NCBI GenBank assembly: GCA_030429765.1
Contig: JAUIER010000003.1
Coordinates: 80,402 to 144,401 of the forward strand
Direction of reading: 5' to 3'
Length of the DNA: 64,000 nt
Source: a bacterium
GTDB lineage: Bacteria > Omnitrophota > Gorgyraeia > Zapsychrales > Zapsychraceae
The notes beneath the pieces are model-generated. The model ran no database searches. It saw only the letters and a list, made by a program, of their open reading frames with translations, and was not told the DNA's origin. The translations under genes and the position numbers were made by a program. Shown one piece after another: positions 5,665 to 64,000 of this stretch; within the stretch, counting starts at the first letter, position 1; every line of letters starts with the position of its first letter.

Positions 5665-6707
5665 CGCAGACGTTCAAGAATATTTTAATCATCCGGACGG
5701 ATCGTATCGGAGATGTGGTCCTGACAACACCATCGATCAAGGCGGTGCGAAAGGCCTATCCCGACGCTCGACTGTGTGTTCTGCTGGCACCTTTAACCTA
5801 TGATCTGCTAAACGGGATTGGTTTTGTCGACCGGCTATTCGTCGATGATCGACGGGGAGAGCACGCGGGAAATCTAGGTTTTTTCAAATTGGTCCGAAAA
5901 ATTCGACGGGAACGATTTGACCTGGTGATTAATTATCACACCAAGAAGCGTACAAATTTGATGGCGTTTCTGGCGGGCGTTCCGTACCGGTTGGGTTATC
6001 GCAACAACAAATGGGGCTTTTTATTGAATCATCCCGTCGAAGATTATCGTCATGAAGGTTTAAAGCACGAGGCCGCCTACTGTTTAGACCTGCTTAATGA
6101 GATCGGCATCAGCGATGCTGAATTAACTCCCGAAATCGCCTTGCTCGACGAATCCGTGGCCTGGGTCGATGATTTTCTGGGGCTTAACCAGATTGACGCG
6201 GGGGACAAGCTGATCGTGATTCATCCGTCGGCCAGCGATCCGGCCAAACAGTGGCCCGCCGAAAATTTTGTTGAACTGATCAACACCCTGGGAACGCGCA
6301 ACGCCGAACTCAAATTTGCCGTGATTGGAACGGCGGCCAATAGATCGCTGGCTGCTTCGATCGTCAAAGGCACCCGGCCGAAGGTGCTCGACACCACGGG
6401 TCTGCTGTCACTTAGCCAGATGGTCGCGCTCCTCAAGCGGGCCGATCTGCTGATATCCAATGATTCAGGGCCGGTTCATGTGGCCGCCGCCCTTCAAACA
6501 CCGGTGATATCCATCTTTACCCGGAATCAACCCGGGATCAATCCCACACGTTGGCAACCGCTTGGAGAGAGGTCGGCGTACGTAAGTGTTGATGCCGATC
6601 ACTCCAAATCCTTCAAAAAAGCCCAGAATTACGACCCAAAATCCATGCAACCGATTGCCGTTCAGACGGTTTTGCAAGCAGTTGACGCCCTTTGTAAACT
6701 ATGCTAG
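5661..6707 (+). CDS. GT9-family glycosyltransferase (heptosyltransferase-like)
   Basis: 348 aa with an ATGA overlap on the upstream stop. Motifs: ILIIRTDRIGDVVLTTP, ISNDSGPVHVAAA, SIFT. Confidence 0.75.
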   Translation: MTQTFKNILIIRTDRIGDVVLTTPSIKAVRKAYPDARLCVLLAPLTYDLLNGIGFVDRLFVDDRRGEHAGNLGFFKLVRKIRRERFDLVINYHTKKRTNLMAFLAGVPYRLGYRNNKWGFLLNHPVEDYRHEGLKHEAAYCLDLLNEIGISDAELTPEIALLDESVAWVDDFLGLNQIDAGDKLIVIHPSASDPAKQWPAENFVELINTLGTRNAELKFAVIGTAANRSLAASIVKGTRPKVLDTTGLLSLSQMVALLKRADLLISNDSGPVHVAAALQTPVISIFTRNQPGINPTRWQPLGERSAYVSVDADHSKSFKKAQNYDPKSMQPIAVQTVLQAVDALCKLC

Positions 6708-55978: not shown

Positions 55979-56006
55979 GTGTCTACGGTGTTGGTTCTGG
56001 TAGAAT
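55977..56006 (+). promoter_or_regulatory. Extended -10 promoter candidate for the two-gene cassette
   Basis: TGgTAGAAT (TG at 55998-55999, hexamer at 56001-56006) with a weak -35 TTGTGT (55977-55982) and an 18-nt spacer. Confidence 0.3.
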
Positions 56007-56105
56007 AGTAGGAATTAACTGCGCGGGGCTTCACGAACTTCCAATCCTGCAGCAGTTTTTCCAGTGTGATTAAGCAAGCAAAATTAAGAAATATTTCGAT
56101 TGTAA

Positions 56106-56492
56106 ATGACTAACAATTCAATATTTTCATTTCCTCCTGATTTTGAAGTGGAGTATAAATTTTTGACAGTGGACGAGGCCGGTAGAAAAACTGGAACTCC
56201 CTTTCAGGGTTACCGGAGCAATTGGCTATATGAAGGGGATGACCCAATTGCCGACGGCATTTATATGATTCATCCTGAATTTCTGGATGAAGACGGAAAA
56301 AGTTTTCAAAAGAATAGGAAGGTTCCTGCAAAAGGCCTGGCCAGAATGGTAGTAGTCAATCCAGCTAAGAGACCTTATCATCAAAAGAAAATAAAAGTTG
56401 GAACAAGAGGTTTTTTTGTCGAGGGAAATCGGAAAGTGGCAATGGCAACCGTAACGAAGGTGCTTGGTTTGCATACCAATAAAACAACTTAG
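56106..56492 (+). CDS. Free-standing EF-Tu domain III-like protein
   Basis: 128 aa. [28 protein letters not shown] and the C-terminal [23 protein letters not shown] align by eye with EF-Tu domain III, as I recall the E. coli sequence. There is no G domain and no domain II. Codon usage looks A+T-rich. Confidence 0.5.
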   Translation: [128 protein letters not shown]

Positions 56493-56542
56493 TAGAAAAT
56501 TCTCATTCCATAACAGGGATAGGATTTTTCAAAGATAATTGA

Positions 56543-57247
56543 ATGACGTATATTAGAATTTTTGCCTTGGTGCTTAGCGTTATTTTAACGGCCGGGTGTG
56601 CTACCGTTGTTCGGGATCAATTACCGGCAGTCCAAAAATTTTCGACATCTGAGGAAGCTTTCAGCGTATACGTGCTGAATCATGGATGGCATACAGGACT
56701 GGTGATCAGGCGTTCTGATATCCCTGACCATCTTTGTCCCGAAAGTGAAGATTTTGCTAAGTATGAGTATCTCGAAATTGGATGGGGCGATCAAGGTTTT
56801 TACCAGGCTCAGAAAATCACTTTGGGTATTACTATCCGGGCGATCTTTTGGCCGTCCAAAAGCGTACTACATGTGGTGGGATTTAATGGGTCAGTTGAGG
56901 CATATTTTGAAACCAGTGATATTGTACGAGTTGATCTTTCGGAACAGGGATTTAACAAAATATGCATGTTTATTCATGAAACGTTCAAGAGGGAGCAGGT
57001 TGATCTACGAGCTTCGTCTATCGGACCGGGTTTGTACGGGGATAGTAAATTCTACAGAGCTCGCGGGAGATACTACTTTCCTAAAACGTGTAATGTTTGG
57101 ACCGCAAGGGCCCTACGTAAAGGTGGTTGTCCGATAACACCTATTTACGCTGTGACATCCGGCAATACGCTGAATCAGACCAAGAAGTTTGGAGTAATTG
57201 TTAGGGAGTTCCTAGAGTCGTATAAAGCTTCAGGTAGAAAAAAATAA
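56543..57247 (+). CDS. DUF2459/TIGR02117-like lipoprotein
   Basis: 234 aa. Lipobox LTAGC. The motifs NHGWHTGLVI, LEIGWGDQGFY and YYFPKTCNVWTARALRKGGCP match my memory of the DUF2459 family. Confidence 0.55.
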   Translation: MTYIRIFALVLSVILTAGCATVVRDQLPAVQKFSTSEEAFSVYVLNHGWHTGLVIRRSDIPDHLCPESEDFAKYEYLEIGWGDQGFYQAQKITLGITIRAIFWPSKSVLHVVGFNGSVEAYFETSDIVRVDLSEQGFNKICMFIHETFKREQVDLRASSIGPGLYGDSKFYRARGRYYFPKTCNVWTARALRKGGCPITPIYAVTSGNTLNQTKKFGVIVREFLESYKASGRKK

Positions 57248-57354
57248 GTGGATGGTCGAAGTCTCTCCAATCTTGAAAGAATTGGTATCAGAAATCCCTA
57301 AAGTAAAGCAGGGCATAAGTTTAGGTCGTAATTCATTATATTAGCGAAGAGGCC

Positions 57355-57399
57355 TGTCCCTTTTCGGGGACTGTCCCCTTTGGGGGAGCCGTTCGGGCT
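57355..57399 (+). other. Cluster of three short GC-rich hairpins between the cassette and the giant ORF
   Basis: GTCCC-TTTTCG-GGGAC (57356-57371), TCCCC-TTT-GGGGG (57374-57386) and AGCC-GTTCG-GGCT (57387-57399). No U-tract follows. They may terminate or insulate the cassette transcript. Confidence 0.3.
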
Positions 57400-57427
57400 T
57401 GCCTATAATACTAATATATCGTATAAT
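57399..57427 (+). promoter_or_regulatory. Sigma70-like promoter candidate for the giant ORF
   Basis: TTGCCT (57399-57404), a 17-nt spacer, then the consensus TATAAT (57422-57427). A second TATAAT lies at 57404-57409. Confidence 0.35.
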
Positions 57428-57477
57428 TAGTGTATTACTGGTTCCCCACCGTAAGCTTTAGTTTCCACCCATAGTCT

Positions 57478-60400
57478 ATGTTGATTTCAATCAAACGGCA
57501 TTTCCGTCATCCGTTGTTTTGCGCGTTGGTGTCGATGCTGACATGTCAGTTATCATTTGCTGTCCCTGGCGTTGCGTCTACGCAAGCCTCGCAGGGAGTG
57601 GCTCTGCCTGAACCCGGCACGCTGGTGATGCCGAGCGCCGATTTTTATGCCCCGGTCCTCAAAGGGGTTCAAATCCATCCCGACCAGCCGTTTCATTTTG
57701 AATTTATTGTCGATCAGGGCGATCAGTCGATTTCCTTAAGCCAACTGGAGGCCGAGTCGTATCGCTTGATCAAATATTTTATGGCCGCCCTGGCCGTGCC
57801 TGAGCAGGACATGTGGGTGAACTTATCGCCCAATGATCATGATCGGGCGATCCCCGACAAATTCGCCCTGACCGCTATGGGACGTGATCTGCTCGCGCAG
57901 GATTATCTGCTCAAACAATTATCGGCGTCGATGATGTATCCCGAACATCGGCTTGGTGAAGATTTCTGGCAACGCGTGCGGCACTTGGCCCATCAACGCT
58001 TGGGCGTGACCGACATTCCCGTCAACACATTCAATAAAGTCTGGATCGTACCCGAACGGGCCGTGGTGTATCAAGACGGATATACCGCGTATGTGTCCGA
58101 AGGCCGGCTCAAGGTCATGCTGCAGTCGGACTATCAAGCCAGCGCATCCAGCCCGATGGGCGCGGGCAATCCCGACGATTCCACCGACCGGTTAGCCCAG
58201 GACATTTATCGTGAAGTGATTATTCCGGAACTGGAGCGAGAGGTGAATACCGGTCGACAGTTTGCCCGTTTGCGCCAGATCTATCATTCGTTGATTCTCG
58301 CGACGTGGTATCGCGAAGTCCTTGAGGACAGTTTGATCAATCAAGTGTATGCCGGACAGAATAAGATCCATGGCATTGAGATCGACGATCCCCGGGCCAA
58401 AGACGCGATCTATCAGCAATACATGGACGCGTTTCGCAAGGGCGTCTACAACTACATCCGCGAAGACTATGATCAATTGAAGGATCAGGTGATCCCGCGG
58501 CAGTACATGTCGGGCGGGATGCAGATCGTGCCGCGGATAGAGATTACCGACGACGCGCGCTCCGTCCGCACGCGCGGAGATCTGGCGATGGTCTCCACGC
58601 AACTGAATCTGCGCGGTGCCAACCGCACGATTGAGATCGCGGCGGATCTCGACGACAGTATCTTTGCCGGGATGCGAAAGAACGGCCGGCCCAAGGTTCA
58701 GTTAACGCATGCGGATCACGCCGAGCTCAAGGGATACCGTCCGGATGGAGAGACGGTCACACTTTTTACCTCACTACGTCAGCGGGTATACGGCCTGGAA
58801 ATTTCCGATGAGGGCGAACTCACGCACGTTTATCCTAACAATAAAAAAGACAAACCGGTGGCTTGGGCCTGGATTCGTGACGACGCCGGCCGGCGGACCG
58901 GAATTGTCGTCGGAGACAAGCGGACGCACGCGTCGCTGGGATACGGAACAAGTGCGGTCAAGATTAACGGGTGGATCGACACGCCGATTATAGCAAGTCA
59001 GCAGCGGCAGGACGCGGCCTTGATCCGCATCGGTCCACAGGCCCTGGGTAAACGACAACTCTTTGCGGTGTTGCCGCCGGATGCGGCCGGCGAAACATTG
59101 GCGGTGCGCTATGAAGACGGTTTTCCGACGGCAGTTCGTCTGAGAGACGGGACCGTTGTTCCTGTTGGTCTGATCCGGAATCAGTATAATCAGGTGATCA
59201 AAGCCACGAACGGTTCGGCCGGTTTTGTTAAGCCGGATCGTGAGACAGCCACCAGCTACGAAAATATCCGAACGGATGCAGAGGGCATAGCGCGTTTGGG
59301 ATTCCGTCTCGAGCGAGTGGCCGACGGGGCCGGCTGGGCCAGTCTCCTGGTTGACCAATCAGTGGTGATCGCTCATGATATTTTTGATCAGCCGCGTCAC
59401 CAAACCTACGGACACGTGATCCGCAATCACCATGATGTCATCATTGCCGCCGCGTGGCGGGAACCCGACCAAGACCAACGGGAGGTAAACCCCAAGCCGT
59501 TGATGATCGTTCGCGATCTCCAAACACACCGGCCGAAGTACTCGGCGGCACCAACCAAATTCAAAGACACCGGCGACGCGATCGTGACCGGACGTCGTTT
59601 ATCGAAACACGGCAAGATTTATATCGGCGGACATTCGCTGAGTTTGGGGGCGACGTATGCCGATGCGCCGGTGGAATTGCTATGGCTGCCCAGCCAGGGT
59701 TATCTGCTGGTCGATGTCTTAAGTGAACGTGATCGTGAGGCGTTTGTGTTTGACTTGAATCGTGACGAAACCGTCACCGCCGAACAGCTAACTCTCGTCG
59801 ACAAATACCTGTCTGAGCTTGGGCTGGAATGGTATCTGGATCCGGCAGAGAAGGCGTATCGTTATGATCTCATCAATGAGTTGATGTCGGATCCGTTGTT
59901 CGCACAGCTGAATTTAAGATTATTTTCAACGCATCCGGCGGATTTACAGACCATTCAGTCTCAGTTGACTGTGCGCCGTCACATGCCGGTCAGGATTTGG
60001 GATCAGGCCCTGGATATCGCCGCCCGACGGATCGATCAATATAAACGCGATTATCCCGATCAGGTCGTCAACGGCAAGATTCCGATGCGGATCAAGCAGT
60101 CGATCATTCGCGATGTGTCGGACGAGGCCTGGTTGATGATCAATGCCGAACGTCCGCTGACGGAGAGCCCATCGGCTCAAATCTTTGAATCGTCGTCAAA
60201 CGAAACCGATGCGGCCATGACCAGCGATGGACCCACGCGGGCTGATATCGAACGGCTGTTCAAGGCGATTCTGGAAATTTACCGGTCCTACGCCGACGGT
60301 GAATTGGAGGACTATCCCACGGCGATGCGCCGGCTGGAGGCATTGGCCGAGCAGACCGCGTCGAATCCGGTCCTGCAGAGTTTTGTCCATGACCGGAAGA

Positions 60401-63400
60401 ATCCCATCCACGTGATTGAGTTCGGACTGGATGGTCAGTTGGTGGCGCGCGATAAGCTCGCGCAGTCCCTTCAGGATGACATCCGCGATATGGAGCTGGC
60501 CCTGGCCGGACTTCGATCGCTCGACGACACCGACCCCGCCCCGGTGACGGATGCGTATCCGGCCGAGATCAAATATTTTGAGTTAATCAATAAAGGACGC
60601 GGTTCGACGGATTCAGATGCCGCGATGGCGGGTATCGATACTTTTGTGGCTGAGCGGATCACACAATTGCAGGACGCGGTGACGGAACGTGAACAGGTGA
60701 CACCCAACACGGTTCGGCATGTCGCGGGGCTTTGGCTAAAAGCCCTCATCCAGGAGTGGGATTACGGCCGGAACATCGTTCACACACGGGCCGAGGCCGT
60801 CGAGATAGGGGAACGCCTGAACCGGGCGTGGAAGGCCGCCGGGTTCGACAAGGTTCGTTCATGGCCGGCGCAGGTGATGCTCATGGGCTCTCTGCAGGTT
60901 TCGGAAGACAAGTACTTTCAATTTGAAGATATGCAGGAGGCCTTGATCGAACATGCCACGCGGGAGGAAAAGATCTTGGCTTACTGGACCAAGGCGGTGC
61001 GCTCTGTCAGTCATCTCAGATATTACGGCAATCATCCGGAAGATGAATTTGAGGATCCGCTCGTCGATCAAACCGTCATTCAGGATACGGCGCGCAAATA
61101 CATCACCTTGCTGCTGGAAGACGCGCCCGAGAAGGCCACTCAAGATCAGCTGTGGGGATTGATCGTTTTGCTCGATCCGTTCATCTATCATCCTGACTTT
61201 TTAATTGATCAGTGGGCCAAGCATGCCTATAAGCAACCCAACGATCATGTCATGACCGCCAAGGTCCTCGACATTCTGAAGGATCTCAACGCGGAACAGC
61301 GGCAGCGATTCCAACAACTCGCCCGACGGGCGTTTGCGATATCGGATGACGAATGGGCGGCGGCTGGATTCCGGTCGCCGTACACAGACTTTATCATCCA
61401 TACCTTTAATGAACGACTGGACCACATGATGACTCAGATGTCGATCAAGTCCTCGAGTGAGTTCAGCGGGGATCACGTGCAGCTGATGGCCCGGTCCGAA
61501 GAATTTTTCGACGCCCATGTGGGATGGTATGCCTTAACGCGCGATCCCAGGGCGGTGCGCGAGATGATGTTCTCCAATAAACGGCATGCCCGTTATCCGG
61601 AGGCCGGTTTTCTGGGGCTGCGTCAGGCCATCGTCAAACGGCGATTGTTCAAGGCGATGGAACAAGATCCGCGGCATTACTATCGACGGGTCTTCGCGCA
61701 TCCATTGCTGGCGGATTCACCTAACTGGGGATTTTTAAGTGAGTTGTTGAGCGACGAGGCGATGATGGCCGATCCCGATGATATGACCGAACAGTTCCGT
61801 CGACGAATTGATCTAGCCATTGCTCAGGTGGGTTATCCTGGAATATCTGTATCCGAACAGGCTGCTCAAGATTTGCTTGCTGACTATGAACAGGGTTTTG
61901 ACGTGACGGAACGGATTGCCATTCCACGGATCAGCGTCTGGCTGATGCGTCACCAGATTCCTGTGTTTCAGTCTTATGAAATGCTAGCGGCCATCCACGT
62001 CGCCGCCGACAAGTGGCGAGCCAATTTCAATCAGACAGTGGAGCTTGAGGTTGGTGCCTTGATGAGCTTTACGAATGTGGTGGGGCTACCGATGTTTGGA
62101 TTTGAAGGATCGTGGACAGATGCGGAAGTGCAGACCGTTCGACGGATTATGGGGTGGTTGGATGGGGAAAAAGTCTCTACATTGAAAGGGTTGCAAGCTC
62201 GATTGTTGACATCTTCGGTAACATTTAAAAAGCGCGGCAGGGGATTCAGAGGCATTGCGGAGATCATACAAGGGATCATGCCGGCCGGTCCCCGTATACC
62301 TGGCGATAGACGCACAAACGCGATTCAGCTCGTCGACATTGATACAAGCTGGTTTACAGGGAATATCACATTCCCGATGATTCAGATTCTCAAGGAATTA
62401 TTGCTGGATCGGACGCAGGACAAGGATGTCATTGATGAAGACTACTTTGACTCACGAATTGCGGTGTTGGCCAAGATACAAGAGTTGTTAGAGCGGCTTG
62501 TCCTTCGGGAGCAGTCATTAATTGAAAACTTTGCGACAGCCTATCGCGCGCAATTGCAGGAAGAGCGTAGAACGTTGTTGTATACATGGCTGACCATGAT
62601 GCGCGGTGACGAAGAAATTTTAGATCTGGAACCTGATGATTTGTCGCACAGATTTACACTTTCAACGGATGATGTTTTGAAGGTATTAAGAGATTACTCT
62701 GAAGAGATCGATGACCGAGATCACGCGATGAAAGCCGGTGAGGCGTTTGAGAACAATCCGTATCATGAACCGCATTTTGATCTGATTGACAATCTGGAAC
62801 TGGCCGAGCGGTCGAATATCGTGATGATCGGGGCGGCGGAAAATCCGCAGGCCGGTTTGGCCTTCGCGATGCGCGGACATCATGTCAGGTCCATCACCAA
62901 GGATATCAAGGGGCCGACCGTGGAGGCGGCGCTGCAGGAGTCACTTGAGGCCGATATTTCCGGTCGGGGCGGACGGTATGTCACCAATCGGGAGACCGAC
63001 TATCTGGATGTCGACATCGACGCCGAATCGGTGGATGTGTATGTGGTGCCGGCGGTGCTCGACGATCCGCGCACCGTGCAGCAGGATTTGATGCTGGATA
63101 AAATGCTGCGCGAATTGCGGCCGGGCGGTCATCTGGTGCTGTCGTTTATCATCAATGCGTCGGGATGGGAGCGCTATGTCGAGCGGTTCGCGGCGTCACG
63201 CGGGTTTGAACTGGAGAAGACGTATGATTATACCGTGTCGGACGCGGCGGTGATCTATCGCGTTGTGCCGGATGCGGCCAGACAGCTGGCCGCCATGGCG
63301 TCGGAGATCGGCGCGGCCAATGATGAGGCCATGCTGGCGTTCAGTGAGTTTGACAACAAGATCGGGATCGATCCATTTTCCGGTCGTTTATCGGTGCTGT

Positions 63401-64000
63401 CCGATGAGCCGGTGTTTGTGCCGGCGTTTGAGTTATGGGCGGTGCGTCACGGTGAGACCGCCGGTAATGTTCAGCGCATCTTTCAAGGGGCGACGGACAC
63501 GTCGATCAATCAGTTGAATCAACGCGGACGCGAGCAGGCCGCAGAAGCGGCGCGCCTGATGTTTGAACAGCTCGAGGCCAAACTCAGGGCCGGTGATCAC
63601 GTTGTTATATTGACCAGTGAGTTCGCGCGGGCGAAAGAGACGGCGCAGGCCTTTGTGGATTTTGTTGAGGCTCAATTGGGGGATGCATCGAACTTAACCA
63701 TCGTCGAAGATGCCGGGGTCAATGAGATTGATTTCGGCGAACTCAACAATCTGTCCGAACAGGATGAGTTAACGGATCGTCAGCGCACGTTTATCGATCA
63801 GTATCGGTATCAGAAAAACGCGCGCGCGAAACCGGCCGGCGGCGAAAGCTATCTGGAATTGACCCAGCGGGTCCACCGATGGCTCAAAGAATTGAATCAG
63901 CGCTACGCGGACCAAACCGTGGTGATGTTTGGTCACGGTACATTTTTATCGGCCGTTCGGATGTTGACGGGGGATACGTCGATGAACGACGCCAGCGGTC
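57478..64000 (+). CDS. Giant secreted multidomain protein, N-terminal >=2,174 aa (3' end outside the window)
   Basis: Hand translation of frame +1 gives TAG at 57472-57474, ATG at 57478, and no stop up to nt 64000. The track lists no frame-1 ORF here because it requires a stop. The N-terminus MLISIKRHFRHPLFCALVSMLTCQLSFAVPGVASTQA is signal-peptide-like. No Shine-Dalgarno sequence is obvious, so the exact start is uncertain. Confidence 0.8.
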   Translation, partial: MLISIKRHFRHPLFCALVSMLTCQLSFAVPGVASTQASQGVALPEPGTLVMPSADFYAPVLKGVQIHPDQPFHFEFIVDQGDQSISLSQLEAESYRLIKYFMAALAVPEQDMWVNLSPNDHDRAIPDKFALTAMGRDLLAQDYLLKQLSASMMYPEHRLGEDFWQRVRHLAHQRLGVTDIPVNTFNKVWIVPERAVVYQDGYTAYVSEGRLKVMLQSDYQASASSPMGAGNPDDSTDRLAQDIYREVIIPELEREVNTGRQFARLRQIYHSLILATWYREVLEDSLINQVYAGQNKIHGIEIDDPRAKDAIYQQYMDAFRKGVYNYIREDYDQLKDQVIPRQYMSGGMQIVPRIEITDDARSVRTRGDLAMVSTQLNLRGANRTIEIAADLDDSIFAGMRKNGRPKVQLTHADHAELKGYRPDGETVTLFTSLRQRVYGLEISDEGELTHVYPNNKKDKPVAWAWIRDDAGRRTGIVVGDKRTHASLGYGTSAVKINGWIDTPIIASQQRQDAALIRIGPQALGKRQLFAVLPPDAAGETLAVRYEDGFPTAVRLRDGTVVPVGLIRNQYNQVIKATNGSAGFVKPDRETATSYENIRTDAEGIARLGFRLERVADGAGWASLLVDQSVVIAHDIFDQPRHQTYGHVIRNHHDVIIAAAWREPDQDQREVNPKPLMIVRDLQTHRPKYSAAPTKFKDTGDAIVTGRRLSKHGKIYIGGHSLSLGATYADAPVELLWLPSQGYLLVDVLSERDREAFVFDLNRDETVTAEQLTLVDKYLSELGLEWYLDPAEKAYRYDLINELMSDPLFAQLNLRLFSTHPADLQTIQSQLTVRRHMPVRIWDQALDIAARRIDQYKRDYPDQVVNGKIPMRIKQSIIRDVSDEAWLMINAERPLTESPSAQIFESSSNETDAAMTSDGPTRADIERLFKAILEIYRSYADGELEDYPTAMRRLEALAEQTASNPVLQSFVHDRKNPIHVIEFGLDGQLVARDKLAQSLQDDIRDMELALAGLRSLDDTDPAPVTDAYPAEIKYFELINKGRGSTDSDAAMAGIDTFVAERITQLQDAVTEREQVTPNTVRHVAGLWLKALIQEWDYGRNIVHTRAEAVEIGERLNRAWKAAGFDKVRSWPAQVMLMGSLQVSEDKYFQFEDMQEALIEHATREEKILAYWTKAVRSVSHLRYYGNHPEDEFEDPLVDQTVIQDTARKYITLLLEDAPEKATQDQLWGLIVLLDPFIYHPDFLIDQWAKHAYKQPNDHVMTAKVLDILKDLNAEQRQRFQQLARRAFAISDDEWAAAGFRSPYTDFIIHTFNERLDHMMTQMSIKSSSEFSGDHVQLMARSEEFFDAHVGWYALTRDPRAVREMMFSNKRHARYPEAGFLGLRQAIVKRRLFKAMEQDPRHYYRRVFAHPLLADSPNWGFLSELLSDEAMMADPDDMTEQFRRRIDLAIAQVGYPGISVSEQAAQDLLADYEQGFDVTERIAIPRISVWLMRHQIPVFQSYEMLAAIHVAADKWRANFNQTVELEVGALMSFTNVVGLPMFGFEGSWTDAEVQTVRRIMGWLDGEKVSTLKGLQARLLTSSVTFKKRGRGFRGIAEIIQGIMPAGPRIPGDRRTNAIQLVDIDTSWFTGNITFPMIQILKELLLDRTQDKDVIDEDYFDSRIAVLAKIQELLERLVLREQSLIENFATAYRAQLQEERRTLLYTWLTMMRGDEEILDLEPDDLSHRFTLSTDDVLKVLRDYSEEIDDRDHAMKAGEAFENNPYHEPHFDLIDNLELAERSNIVMIGAAENPQAGLAFAMRGHHVRSITKDIKGPTVEAALQESLEADISGRGGRYVTNRETDYLDVDIDAESVDVYVVPAVLDDPRTVQQDLMLDKMLRELRPGGHLVLSFIINASGWERYVERFAASRGFELEKTYDYTVSDAAVIYRVVPDAARQLAAMASEIGAANDEAMLAFSEFDNKIGIDPFSGRLSVLSDEPVFVPAFELWAVRHGETAGNVQRIFQGATDTSINQLNQRGREQAAEAARLMFEQLEAKLRAGDHVVILTSEFARAKETAQAFVDFVEAQLGDASNLTIVEDAGVNEIDFGELNNLSEQDELTDRQRTFIDQYRYQKNARAKPAGGESYLELTQRVHRWLKELNQRYADQTVVMFGHGTFLSAVRMLTGDTSMNDASG
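62815..63270 (+). other. Methyltransferase-like Rossmann module inside the giant ORF
   Basis: NIVMIGAAENPQAGLAFAMRGHHVRSI ... VDVYVVPAVLDD ... MLDKMLRELRPGGHLVLSF follows the class I SAM-methyltransferase motif order, but the glycine-rich motif I is atypical. Confidence 0.4.
63412..64000 (+). other. Histidine-phosphatase (phosphoglycerate-mutase-like) module inside the giant ORF
   Basis: ELWAVRHGETAGNVQRIFQGATDTSINQLNQRGREQA, ILTSEFARAKETA, NEIDFGELN, GGESYLELTQRV and VVMFGHGTFL appear in this order. The RHG codons are at 63445-63453. Confidence 0.7.

Follow-up and report, generated by a model that had tools for sequence, protein, structure and literature searches.

A protein with constant ends, genome-specific separator motifs and a nearly cysteine-free mature chain represents a very large Omnitrophota family with predicted export

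The window analysed here, a stretch of 64,000 nucleotides from an Omnitrophota genome (Zapsychraceae; GenBank assembly GCA_030429765.1, contig JAUIER010000003.1, positions 80,402-144,401 of the forward strand), ends inside a long gene on the + strand, whose product of 2,263 residues, the query below, belongs to a very large, unnamed paralogous family nearly confined to Omnitrophota and named 'bookended' here. All four features of this family are present in the query: a conserved N-terminal module (head) that follows a predicted signal peptide, a conserved C-terminal tail, short separator motifs that divide the cargo between these ends, and the exclusion of cysteine. The preliminary description of this DNA did not mention the tail, the separators of the D-x-A-M type or the exclusion of cysteine. 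The overall picture favoured here, which we consider about evenly balanced between right and wrong, is that of exported, translocation-competent carriers whose cargo would be sorted onward and probably processed at the separators, and its uncertainty sits almost wholly in the steps after export.

In frame +1 of the window, a TAG codon at 57472-57474 is followed by the first ATG at 57478, and the frame remains free of stops through 64000 (0 stops in 2,174 codons), as compared to 99 stops in frame 2 and 107 in frame 3 across the same span. The preliminary description had read this open frame of at least 2,174 codons and explained its absence from the program-made list of open reading frames (ORFs) by the lack of a stop codon within reach of the list, both of which proved right, since the frame runs off the window end. 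From the base composition, the chance of such a stop-free frame is about 1e-41. Along the whole ORF, the three codon positions keep a steady guanine-plus-cytosine (GC) content of about 0.60/0.38/0.65, like that of rho, prfA and murA of the window. The NCBI protein P0001 (2,263 residues) is 100% identical over the entire visible part, and the same protein is encoded in two independent Logan assemblies, SRR24442552 and ERR3428548, whose contigs are identical to the window at 6,522/6,522 nucleotides. These public assemblies supply the 3' end that had been called for and place the stop 267 nucleotides (89 codons) beyond the window end, and hence 57478..64000 represents codons 1-2174 of 2,263. Because of the negligible chance of an open frame, the uniform periodicity and the identity of independent sources, the ORF is a genuine intact gene and not an assembly artefact. 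The opposite view, that the frame is open by chance, the assembly chimeric or the gene a pseudogene, can draw on nothing besides a gene start that lacks a Shine-Dalgarno sequence, is opposed by the same evidence from three identical sources and by an architecture complete from signal peptide through tail, and has a probability close to nil. The designation as a giant ORF holds as far as the gene is long; it ends soon after the window, and its 2,263 residues and 6.8 kb are not giant for Omnitrophota, where the cut-offs in the literature are at least 10,000 residues (Nielsen and Lui 2026, 10.64898/2026.06.07.730766) or an ORF of more than 20 kb (Seymour et al. 2023, PMC10066038).

Among 5.8 billion proteins, the query has more than 2,500 matches, which share just about 15-18% of its length and carry very different Pfam domains. 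Two regions of the query are conserved among 119 relatives, namely residues 26-350 in all of them and residues 2195-2263 in about half by BLAST, with the tail recognizable by eye in nearly all complete C-termini. The family alignment defines the N-module as residues 44-347 (57607..58518), which corresponds to the recurring module previously noticed at about residues 50-420. It contains about 40 invariant columns, including WVNLSP, GRDLLAQDYxLKQ, NKVWIVP, EVN..FA.LRQ and ILAxWY, and ends in ..YFSGG in the family and in ..PRQYMSGG in the query. None of the invariant residues is His or Cys, and the near-invariant ones include Ser and Lys. Using the head alone in phmmer, 7,913 clusters (at 50% identity) are matched at E<=1e-3 and 6,023 at E<=1e-30; among these matches the head is always N-terminal, in proteins of about 460 to 5,358 residues, the largest member found having 16 D.AM motifs. 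In species-representative genomes, at least 587 loci are found, all in Omnitrophota metagenome-assembled genomes (MAGs) or in MAGs labelled 'uncultured Planctomycetales', which we regard as mislabelled Omnitrophota. Several paralogues per genome are observed, frequently in head-to-tail tandem arrays. At the level of loci, counts come from the 80 best-matching ones, 15 of which contain two or three copies, with three N-modules within about 20 kb in each of L013, L027 and L069, and several genomes supply four to eight copies among these 80 alone. These copy numbers point to large lineage-specific expansions.

No model for the N-module exists in Pfam or NCBIfam, no PDB entry is matched by sequence or profile, and a Foldseek search of the PDB with a full-length member of 627 residues gave nothing at E<=1e-3. 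Likewise, literature searches for the family or for its motif strings yielded no description. The predicted model of the query N-module is of mixed alpha/beta type, in which long helices dominate. A viral origin of the family was rejected, as among 2.9 million viral contigs of IMG/VR the N-module occurs at just three loci (L087-L089), which could be misclassified cellular DNA or rare phage carriage. One further locus (L010:1694-2905) has a single in-frame stop, after which the frame continues homologous to an intact relative; this interruption may reflect read-through, a sequencing error or decay of the gene into a pseudogene.

The family tail is about 60 residues long and follows the pattern GGIDL…G.G…(DPxxL)…GFxPVIINIxP…L..LG, represented in the query by GGIDFTGDRLN…GLVPVILDIRP (residues 2205-2263, + strand, beyond the window and read from the public protein P0001). 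When two tails were compared with NCBIfam and Pfam (E<=1), nothing relevant was matched. In many members, the tail is followed by a short acidic stretch and an ending of the type ..[EQ]-L-S-x-[LVI]-x (QLSSIQ, ELSRVP, LEVSRLN), which the query lacks. In the AlphaFold2 (AF2) model of one member, P0159, the first half of the tail is placed with a predicted local distance difference test (pLDDT) value of 72-91, and residues 600-627 fall below 50. Such a placement bears on the idea of a head-to-tail polymer, in which the tail strand PVIINIxP would be donated to the N-module of another member by donor-strand exchange, generating a heteropolymeric fibre or coat with varied cargo. Indeed, conservation within the tail peaks in a strand-like stretch that AF2 leaves unplaced in cis, thousands of paralogues, many to a genome, preserve head and tail jointly, and the tail-only mini-proteins described below might act as caps. 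This polymer is nevertheless judged improbable, as a usher- or sortase-like neighbour was not found and the separators would be left unexplained.

The N-terminus of the query (residues 1-40; 57478..57597) has the layout of a signal peptide: the basic KRHFRH leads into a hydrophobic core (residues 11-33), after which comes AST-QA. The preliminary description had proposed this, and the pattern extends to the family. The hydrophobic core is the sole transmembrane-like stretch of the query, whose model has a helix at residues 12-26 within the signal-peptide region. When 184 family N-termini were assessed by a hand-made heuristic, a mean of 3.1 K/R versus 0.2 D/E was counted ahead of the hydrophobic core, a strong core was present in 96% and a small-x-small site after the core in 93%; an A-Q pair lies 4-9 residues ahead of a conserved LPxPG in 76%. 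As regards cysteine, the query contains two in 2,263 residues, both inside the hydrophobic core of the signal peptide. Across the family it amounts to 0.067% of 363,797 residues, as compared to 1.15% in neighbouring genes and 1.12% in other genes of the window, a 17-fold depletion, and 110 of 223 members have none past residue 45. Besides cysteine, no residue is off by more than about 1.3-fold, and a slight shift of the family towards acidic residues is seen. Radical SAM members retain the cluster-binding cysteine triad; apart from positions required for catalysis, the mature protein has been cleared of cysteine. Such purging is typical of polypeptides that cross an oxidising compartment and are kept unfolded for another translocation step, for example autotransporter passengers, type I substrates and Gram-positive secreted proteins, and it is typical of S-layer proteins too. 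The depletion in the family hence provides independent support for export, or for extracytoplasmic passage in an unfolded state.

These two features also bear on the alternative of a multi-enzyme protein tethered at the cytoplasmic face, with an uncleaved N-terminal anchor and enzymes that act inside the producing cell, listed as reading (iii) by Nielsen and Lui in the case of long proteins with transmembrane segments only. Positive charges before a single hydrophobic segment, together with the small-x-small/A-Q site, predict an N-in/C-out orientation with cleavage, and a 17-fold depletion of cysteine is unexpected for cytoplasmic enzymes when the neighbouring genes are normal. Consistent with tethering are the cytoplasmic type of the cargo with its retained catalytic residues and the existence of tail-only proteins devoid of a signal peptide; overall, we hold it for quite improbable.

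The separators divide the query into a head (residues 1-367), a portion that includes module A (368-910), an acidic portion (911-1046), module B (1047-1425), an orphan portion (1426-1747), a methyltransferase-like portion (1748-1948), the histidine phosphatase (1949-2193) and the tail (2194-2263), all on the + strand. The preliminary description had placed enzymatic modules at the visible end of the frame, and this is borne out for the histidine phosphatase domain of branch 1 (residues 1986-2161; 63433..63960), which matches PF00300 (His_Phos_1) with E = 1.4e-28 and 100.3 bits against a cutoff of 21.7. When aligned to PhoE (1EBB), it retains RHGET, ts..RA.ETA, nEIdfGe and fGHGtfl, with the catalytic His of RHG, the Arg, the Glu and the second His kept, so that the module is apparently active; all scores for NCBIfam equivalogs lie far below their cutoffs. 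The adjacent Rossmann-type module (residues 1752-1948; 62731..63321) is 37-40% identical to modules of P0002-P0005 and stays below the Pfam threshold (Methyltransf_11, E = 0.018, 16.1 bits versus a cutoff of 21.2; Anamorsin_N, E = 0.009). By eye, the class I motif I (GxGxG) is absent, its position reading VMIGAAENPQAG, and we call this module methyltransferase-like at most, short of a class I S-adenosylmethionine (SAM)-dependent methyltransferase.

The part N-terminal to these modules is largely without counterparts, and for residues 420-1770 the reported absence of HExxH, P-loop, Cys cluster and tandem repeat was confirmed. Cargo module A (residues 425-829; 58750..59964) recurs at other positions in P0009 and P0010 with 29% identity, and has no match in Pfam, NCBIfam or the PDB. 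It is followed by a short acidic segment (residues 915-1046; 60220..60615) with no Pfam or NCBIfam assignment. Module B (residues 1051-1425; 60628..61752) is found twice in each of P0002, P0004 and P0005 at 32-36% identity, carries the conserved motifs HLRYYGNHPE, LWGL..LDP and AGFRSPY, and has no match in Pfam, NCBIfam or, by profile, the PDB. For the orphan segment (residues 1430-1747; 61765..62718) the sole match is a sub-threshold DUF488-N3a. Searching the 5.8 billion proteins with residues 368-1747 retrieved only the protein itself at E<=1e-3, and nothing was found for the middle modules in PADLOC, PHROGs, Pfam, NCBIfam or the PDB by sequence and profile. In relatives, the cargo comprises His_Phos, methyltransferases, NUDIX, radical SAM, HEAT, kinases, PP2C, pyruvate kinase, NDK and PGK, and further phosphomannomutase, transketolase, LpxC, GNAT, helix-turn-helix and receiver domains. 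Judged from these assignments, the cargo is made of interchangeable domain-sized modules, shuffled among positions and proteins, which are mostly homologues of cytoplasmic enzymes.

The separators were recognized by the motif D-x-A-M, which occurs seven times in the query as compared to 0.6 expected from shuffles: DLAM directly after the N-module (residues 368-371; 58579..58590), DAAM at 911-914 (60208..60219) and at 1047-1050 (60616..60627), DEAM at 1426-1429 (61753..61764), DHAM at 1748-1751 (62719..62730), a second DEAM at 1949-1952 (63322..63333) and DTAM at 2194, beyond the window and read from P0001, all on the + strand. In 120 relatives, 311 D.AM motifs are present versus 25.7 expected, and an unbiased gapped k-mer scan of the variable regions revealed enrichment only of D.AM (430 versus 34.8), SSPV (19x), SSPI (13x) and words of the tail. 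Such enrichment is seen neither in neighbouring genes (16 versus 23.4) nor in other genes of the window (2 versus 2.3). Six residues of the motif are conserved, in the order small, D, (x), A, M, hydrophobic, small. Codon usage at D and A of the motif equals the background, which argues for selection on the peptide, and neither the upstream nucleotides nor the codon of x are conserved; on these grounds a DNA-level origin, such as a recombination scar or a Shine-Dalgarno sequence, was rejected.

Separators are placed just after the head and 4-40 residues before the GGIDL of the tail, with a median spacing of 269 residues, and frequently come in close pairs, 8-40 residues apart. In the query and five relatives, the Pfam domains that were checked lie wholly between consecutive separators (8/8 by our count), and three independent His_Phos modules are each bracketed by separators alike. 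Proteins rich in D.AM tend to be poor in SSP[VI] and vice versa (negative correlation), and this is reflected in their counts per MAG, with D.AM:SSP[VI] ratios of 29:1, 14:1 and 11:0 in some and 0:8, 0:7 and 1:9 in others. Genomes with neither type use NPAML (6-8 versus 0.02-0.05 expected), D-x-A-V-L (5-7 versus 0.06-0.18) or ASS.I. Thus, the separator type is genome-specific and common to the paralogues of a genome. Chance or shared ancestry of the motif was likewise rejected, as it flanks non-homologous domains, keeps six residues, is not enriched in neighbours and has a type that switches with the genome. The variants appear to fit a single frame of a polar residue (D/N/S), x, a small residue (A/P/S) and a hydrophobic one (M/V/I). 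A short motif bordering modules without homology to one another, and shifting en bloc from genome to genome, suggests a site that is read by a factor encoded in the genome. Two variants also occur within one protein of 1,729 residues (L085:1909-7098), in which 14 separators alternate between D-x-A-M and N-S-A-M-T. Candidates for natural gene fission at separators were uninformative: L046 has a frameshift inside a cargo domain, L010 the in-frame stop mentioned above, and L070 an ORF with the N-module only near a contig end.

Since the Met of D-x-A-M is fixed in many genomes and modules beginning there would start with Met, a hydrophobic and a small residue, the motif could also be read as an internal start in a fused operon, from which modules would additionally be made without a signal peptide. 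This internal-initiation reading is largely refuted and very improbable. The Val of D-x-A-V-L is mostly encoded by GTC or GTT, which are not start codons, genomes of the SSP[VI] type have no Met at the motif, and a Shine-Dalgarno-like sequence precedes just 1/6 internal sites as compared to 24/47 real starts. The unconserved upstream nucleotides and the background usage of D and A codons speak against it as well.

In the mechanism favoured here, the protein would be threaded unfolded through Sec, and the near-absence of cysteine, precluding disulfides, would permit the crossing of, or insertion into, a second barrier, which may be the outer membrane or the envelope of a partner cell. The constant head and tail would supply onward sorting. 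A factor encoded in the genome would recognize the separators; most likely it would be a protease that processes the protein and releases the modules, and the two main motif classes would then occupy positions P4-P1 of its sites. For the query, the delivered cargo would consist of the histidine phosphatase, the methyltransferase-like module and four modules without assigned function. The cytoplasmic type of the cargo makes the cytoplasm of another cell the most economical destination, and a partner cell as destination fits the host-dependent lifestyle proposed for the phylum.

Several observations weigh against this picture. Cleavage, export and delivery are each inferred, and the assignment of the N-terminus of the query and the family to the Sec/signal peptidase I type is a prediction from a hand-made heuristic. 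Radical SAM enzymes, kinases and glycolytic enzymes have no obvious extracytoplasmic use, and a putative delivery to a host is invoked to explain their presence. The first separator of the query lies within a confident strand region of the model (pLDDT 83-88), and in many tails an internal DPAML is modelled as the start of a helix, so that a structural or docking role fits as well as cleavage. No columns of the head were found to track the separator type, and a head without invariant His or Cys does not correspond to a classical Ser-His or Cys-His protease. Among the 80 loci, no protease, transporter or immunity partner is conserved next to family genes. Finally, stand-alone tail-only genes encode proteins of 73-105 residues without a signal peptide (P0308, P0229, P0298, P0276), which is awkward if the tail acts solely outside the cytoplasm. 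The properties of the head, the placement of the first separator in the model, the DPAML of the tail, the tail-only genes and the missing partner gene thus keep alive the docking or linker, display and polymer alternatives. The tail-only genes themselves, which may be remnants or encode caps, decoys or chaperone-like partners, are found at L083:8001-8240 (Ca. Aceula meridiana, flanked by an era-like GTPase gene on one side and a yjeF_N gene on the other) and at L085:8001-8222, and one of them is kept in two independent contigs.

Display at the envelope without cleavage is the alternative on which these structural observations bear most directly. Here, the N-module would serve as an anchor in the periplasm, the wall or an outer layer in the manner of S-layer homology domains, and the separators would be linker or docking elements, such as helix caps or added strands. 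In line with display, a signal peptide, acidity and near-absent cysteine are also usual among S-layer and surface proteins, the query's first D.AM falls in a confident strand, the DPAML of the tail is modelled at a helix start, and close pairs 8-40 residues apart are common for binding motifs. In addition, Velamenicoccus is characterized as a 'coated' coccus in the published work. The cargo is, however, overwhelmingly of a type that needs ATP, SAM, NAD or Fe-S clusters of the cytoplasm, and not composed of surface hydrolases or adhesins; a purely structural linker is not expected to switch en bloc between genomes across non-homologous modules; and anchoring domains were not detected with Pfam and NCBIfam. 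Display is therefore regarded as unlikely, albeit not negligibly so.

A bolder version of the carrier picture, which is tentative and on balance doubtful, would be a phylum-specific delivery system, in which thousands of Sec-exported polyproteins, kept competent for translocation by their lack of cysteine, are carried onward by head and tail, cut at their genome-specific separators by a lineage-specific protease and release cytoplasm-type enzymes into a host or prey. Such a system would resemble MARTX toxins in design while consisting of unrelated parts. The protease could be the N-module itself, whose near-invariant Ser and Lys, with no invariant His or Cys, make it a candidate hydrolase of the Ser-Lys type. 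The same separators might mark the cleavage points of proteins of 10,000-147,000 residues.

Long and giant multi-enzyme proteins of Omnitrophota have been published (West-Roberts et al. 2023, 10.1101/2023.11.21.568195; Seymour et al. 2023; Nielsen and Lui 2026), and they resemble the bookended family in that a signal peptide precedes strings of methyltransferase, HATPase, GNAT, NUDIX, radical SAM, phosphomutase and HEAT domains ('multi-enzyme metabolic clusters') in the same phylum, with post-translational cleavage being suspected. The family described here likewise has multi-enzyme Pfam content behind a predicted signal peptide. In contrast, the published giants have at least 10,000-20,000 residues, many of them with dozens of transmembrane helices, whereas the query has 2,263 residues and one N-terminal hydrophobic segment. 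West-Roberts et al. describe the points of cleavage as unknown, published work leaves open why cytoplasm-type enzymes follow signal peptides, and no mention of the N-module, the tail, the separator motif or the cysteine exclusion was found in the passages of the three studies that were searched. The suggestion of undescribed biology is accordingly to be divided: the broad class of long multi-enzyme proteins with signal peptides is known, and the anatomy of head, tail, separators and cysteine exclusion appears new, as no description of it was found.

Among established systems, the nearest in design are MARTX (multifunctional autoprocessing repeats-in-toxin) toxins of Vibrio and relatives, which have conserved ends, interchangeable and strain-shuffled effectors of cytoplasmic type, and release at linker sites after translocation. 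The likeness, in that constant ends bracket a shuffled array of modules, would be an analogy of design only, because bookended proteins have neither RTX or A/B/C repeats nor a cysteine protease domain and carry a predicted Sec signal instead of a type I signal; the MARTX repeats and protease domain had no Pfam or NCBIfam match at E<=1, and no relation in sequence or fold was detected. Cargo of the type IX secretion system (T9SS) combines an N-terminal Sec signal with a conserved C-terminal sorting domain on unrelated proteins, but none of the NCBIfam or Pfam models, those for the T9SS C-terminal domain included, is matched by the two family tails scanned, and the constant N-module is without counterpart there; to our knowledge, T9SS is not known in Omnitrophota. 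Autotransporters (type V) share the scarcity of cysteine in polypeptides that cross the outer membrane unfolded, and differ by their beta-barrel domain, for which the family has no Pfam match. A constant N-terminal trafficking domain with a variable C-terminus is known from PE/PPE, LXG and Rhs/CdiA polymorphic toxins and from 'polyvalent proteins' of phages and plasmids, which resemble the bookended family in having many paralogues per genome, a conserved N-module, variable enzymatic C-terminal parts and shuffling. They use other secretion routes, while the bookended cargo consists mostly of housekeeping-type enzymes and repeats and not of toxins; no immunity-like neighbours and no PADLOC or PHROG matches were found. 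PF18760, which we take to be an ADP-ribosyltransferase family typical of polyvalent proteins, is among the Pfam domains of the relatives' cargo. The phosphatase of the query joins branch 1 of the histidine phosphatases (PhoE, CobC, PspA-like) by its PF00300 score well above threshold and its retained catalytic residues, and differs by being embedded in a presumably exported cysteine-free carrier instead of forming a small soluble enzyme. Overall, the query belongs to no named secretion family.

Omnitrophota are described as uncultured, mostly ultra-small and probably host-dependent, and their long multi-enzyme proteins as an acknowledged puzzle. Against this background, the interest lies in the anatomy of the family and not in the size of the gene, since head and tail define one huge family without counterpart in Pfam, NCBIfam or the PDB, and the separators are candidates for processing or docking sites of long Omnitrophota proteins. 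As a genome-specific boundary motif, they can be searched in metaproteomes as candidate cut or docking sites. If delivery holds, it would represent a new route by which a symbiont or predator moves sets of enzymes into another cell; if it fails, the family, with its 7,913 clusters, would still be a large gap in domain databases that deserves definition.

Upstream of the query gene, the window contains rho, prfA, prmC, a murA/aroA-type gene, trpG, trpD, trpC, trpF and a DUF2459 gene, and this gene order recurs in another Omnitrophota MAG (L003), where a family member of 1,886 residues comes next. The homologue and neighbour search that had been recommended thus gave a large family and no conserved partner gene nearby; the sole recurrent neighbour at family loci is a two-component pair, present at 6-12 of the 80. 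The + strand carries all gene-like ORFs of at least 150 residues in the window, and the GC skew stays positive in 32/32 tiles of 2 kb, a strand bias unusually complete for 64 kb. The GC content dips to 0.448 in the tile 56001-58000, which covers a 230-nucleotide intergenic region and small genes before the ORF, and is 0.54-0.56 in the ORF, above the window average of about 0.50. No tRNA or Rfam matches were obtained within the window. A candidate sigma-70-like promoter (TTGCCT-17-TATAAT, 10/12; 57399..57427, + strand) lies 50 nucleotides before the ATG at 57478; the evidence for it is weak, with 5 promoter-like matches in the region against 3.3 in shuffles and hence no excess, and no Shine-Dalgarno-like sequence is seen before this ATG. 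Both Logan contigs (L001 and L002; 7,135 and 7,134 nucleotides) break 122 nucleotides upstream of the ATG and about 220 nucleotides after the stop, and these shared breaks suggest flanking repeats or strain variation. About 110 nucleotides after the stop, an inverted repeat with a 9-bp stem (GGAGTCGC…GCGACTCC) is present. An ORF of 128 residues at 56106-56492, between the trpF and DUF2459 genes, has no Pfam match. Between the DUF2459 gene and the promoter-like site, a 17-nucleotide unit (CTGTCCCCTTTCGGGGA) occurs twice in tandem (57354-57387), each copy holding a CCCC-TTT-CGGGG hairpin, and this repeat may be a terminator or a regulatory element.

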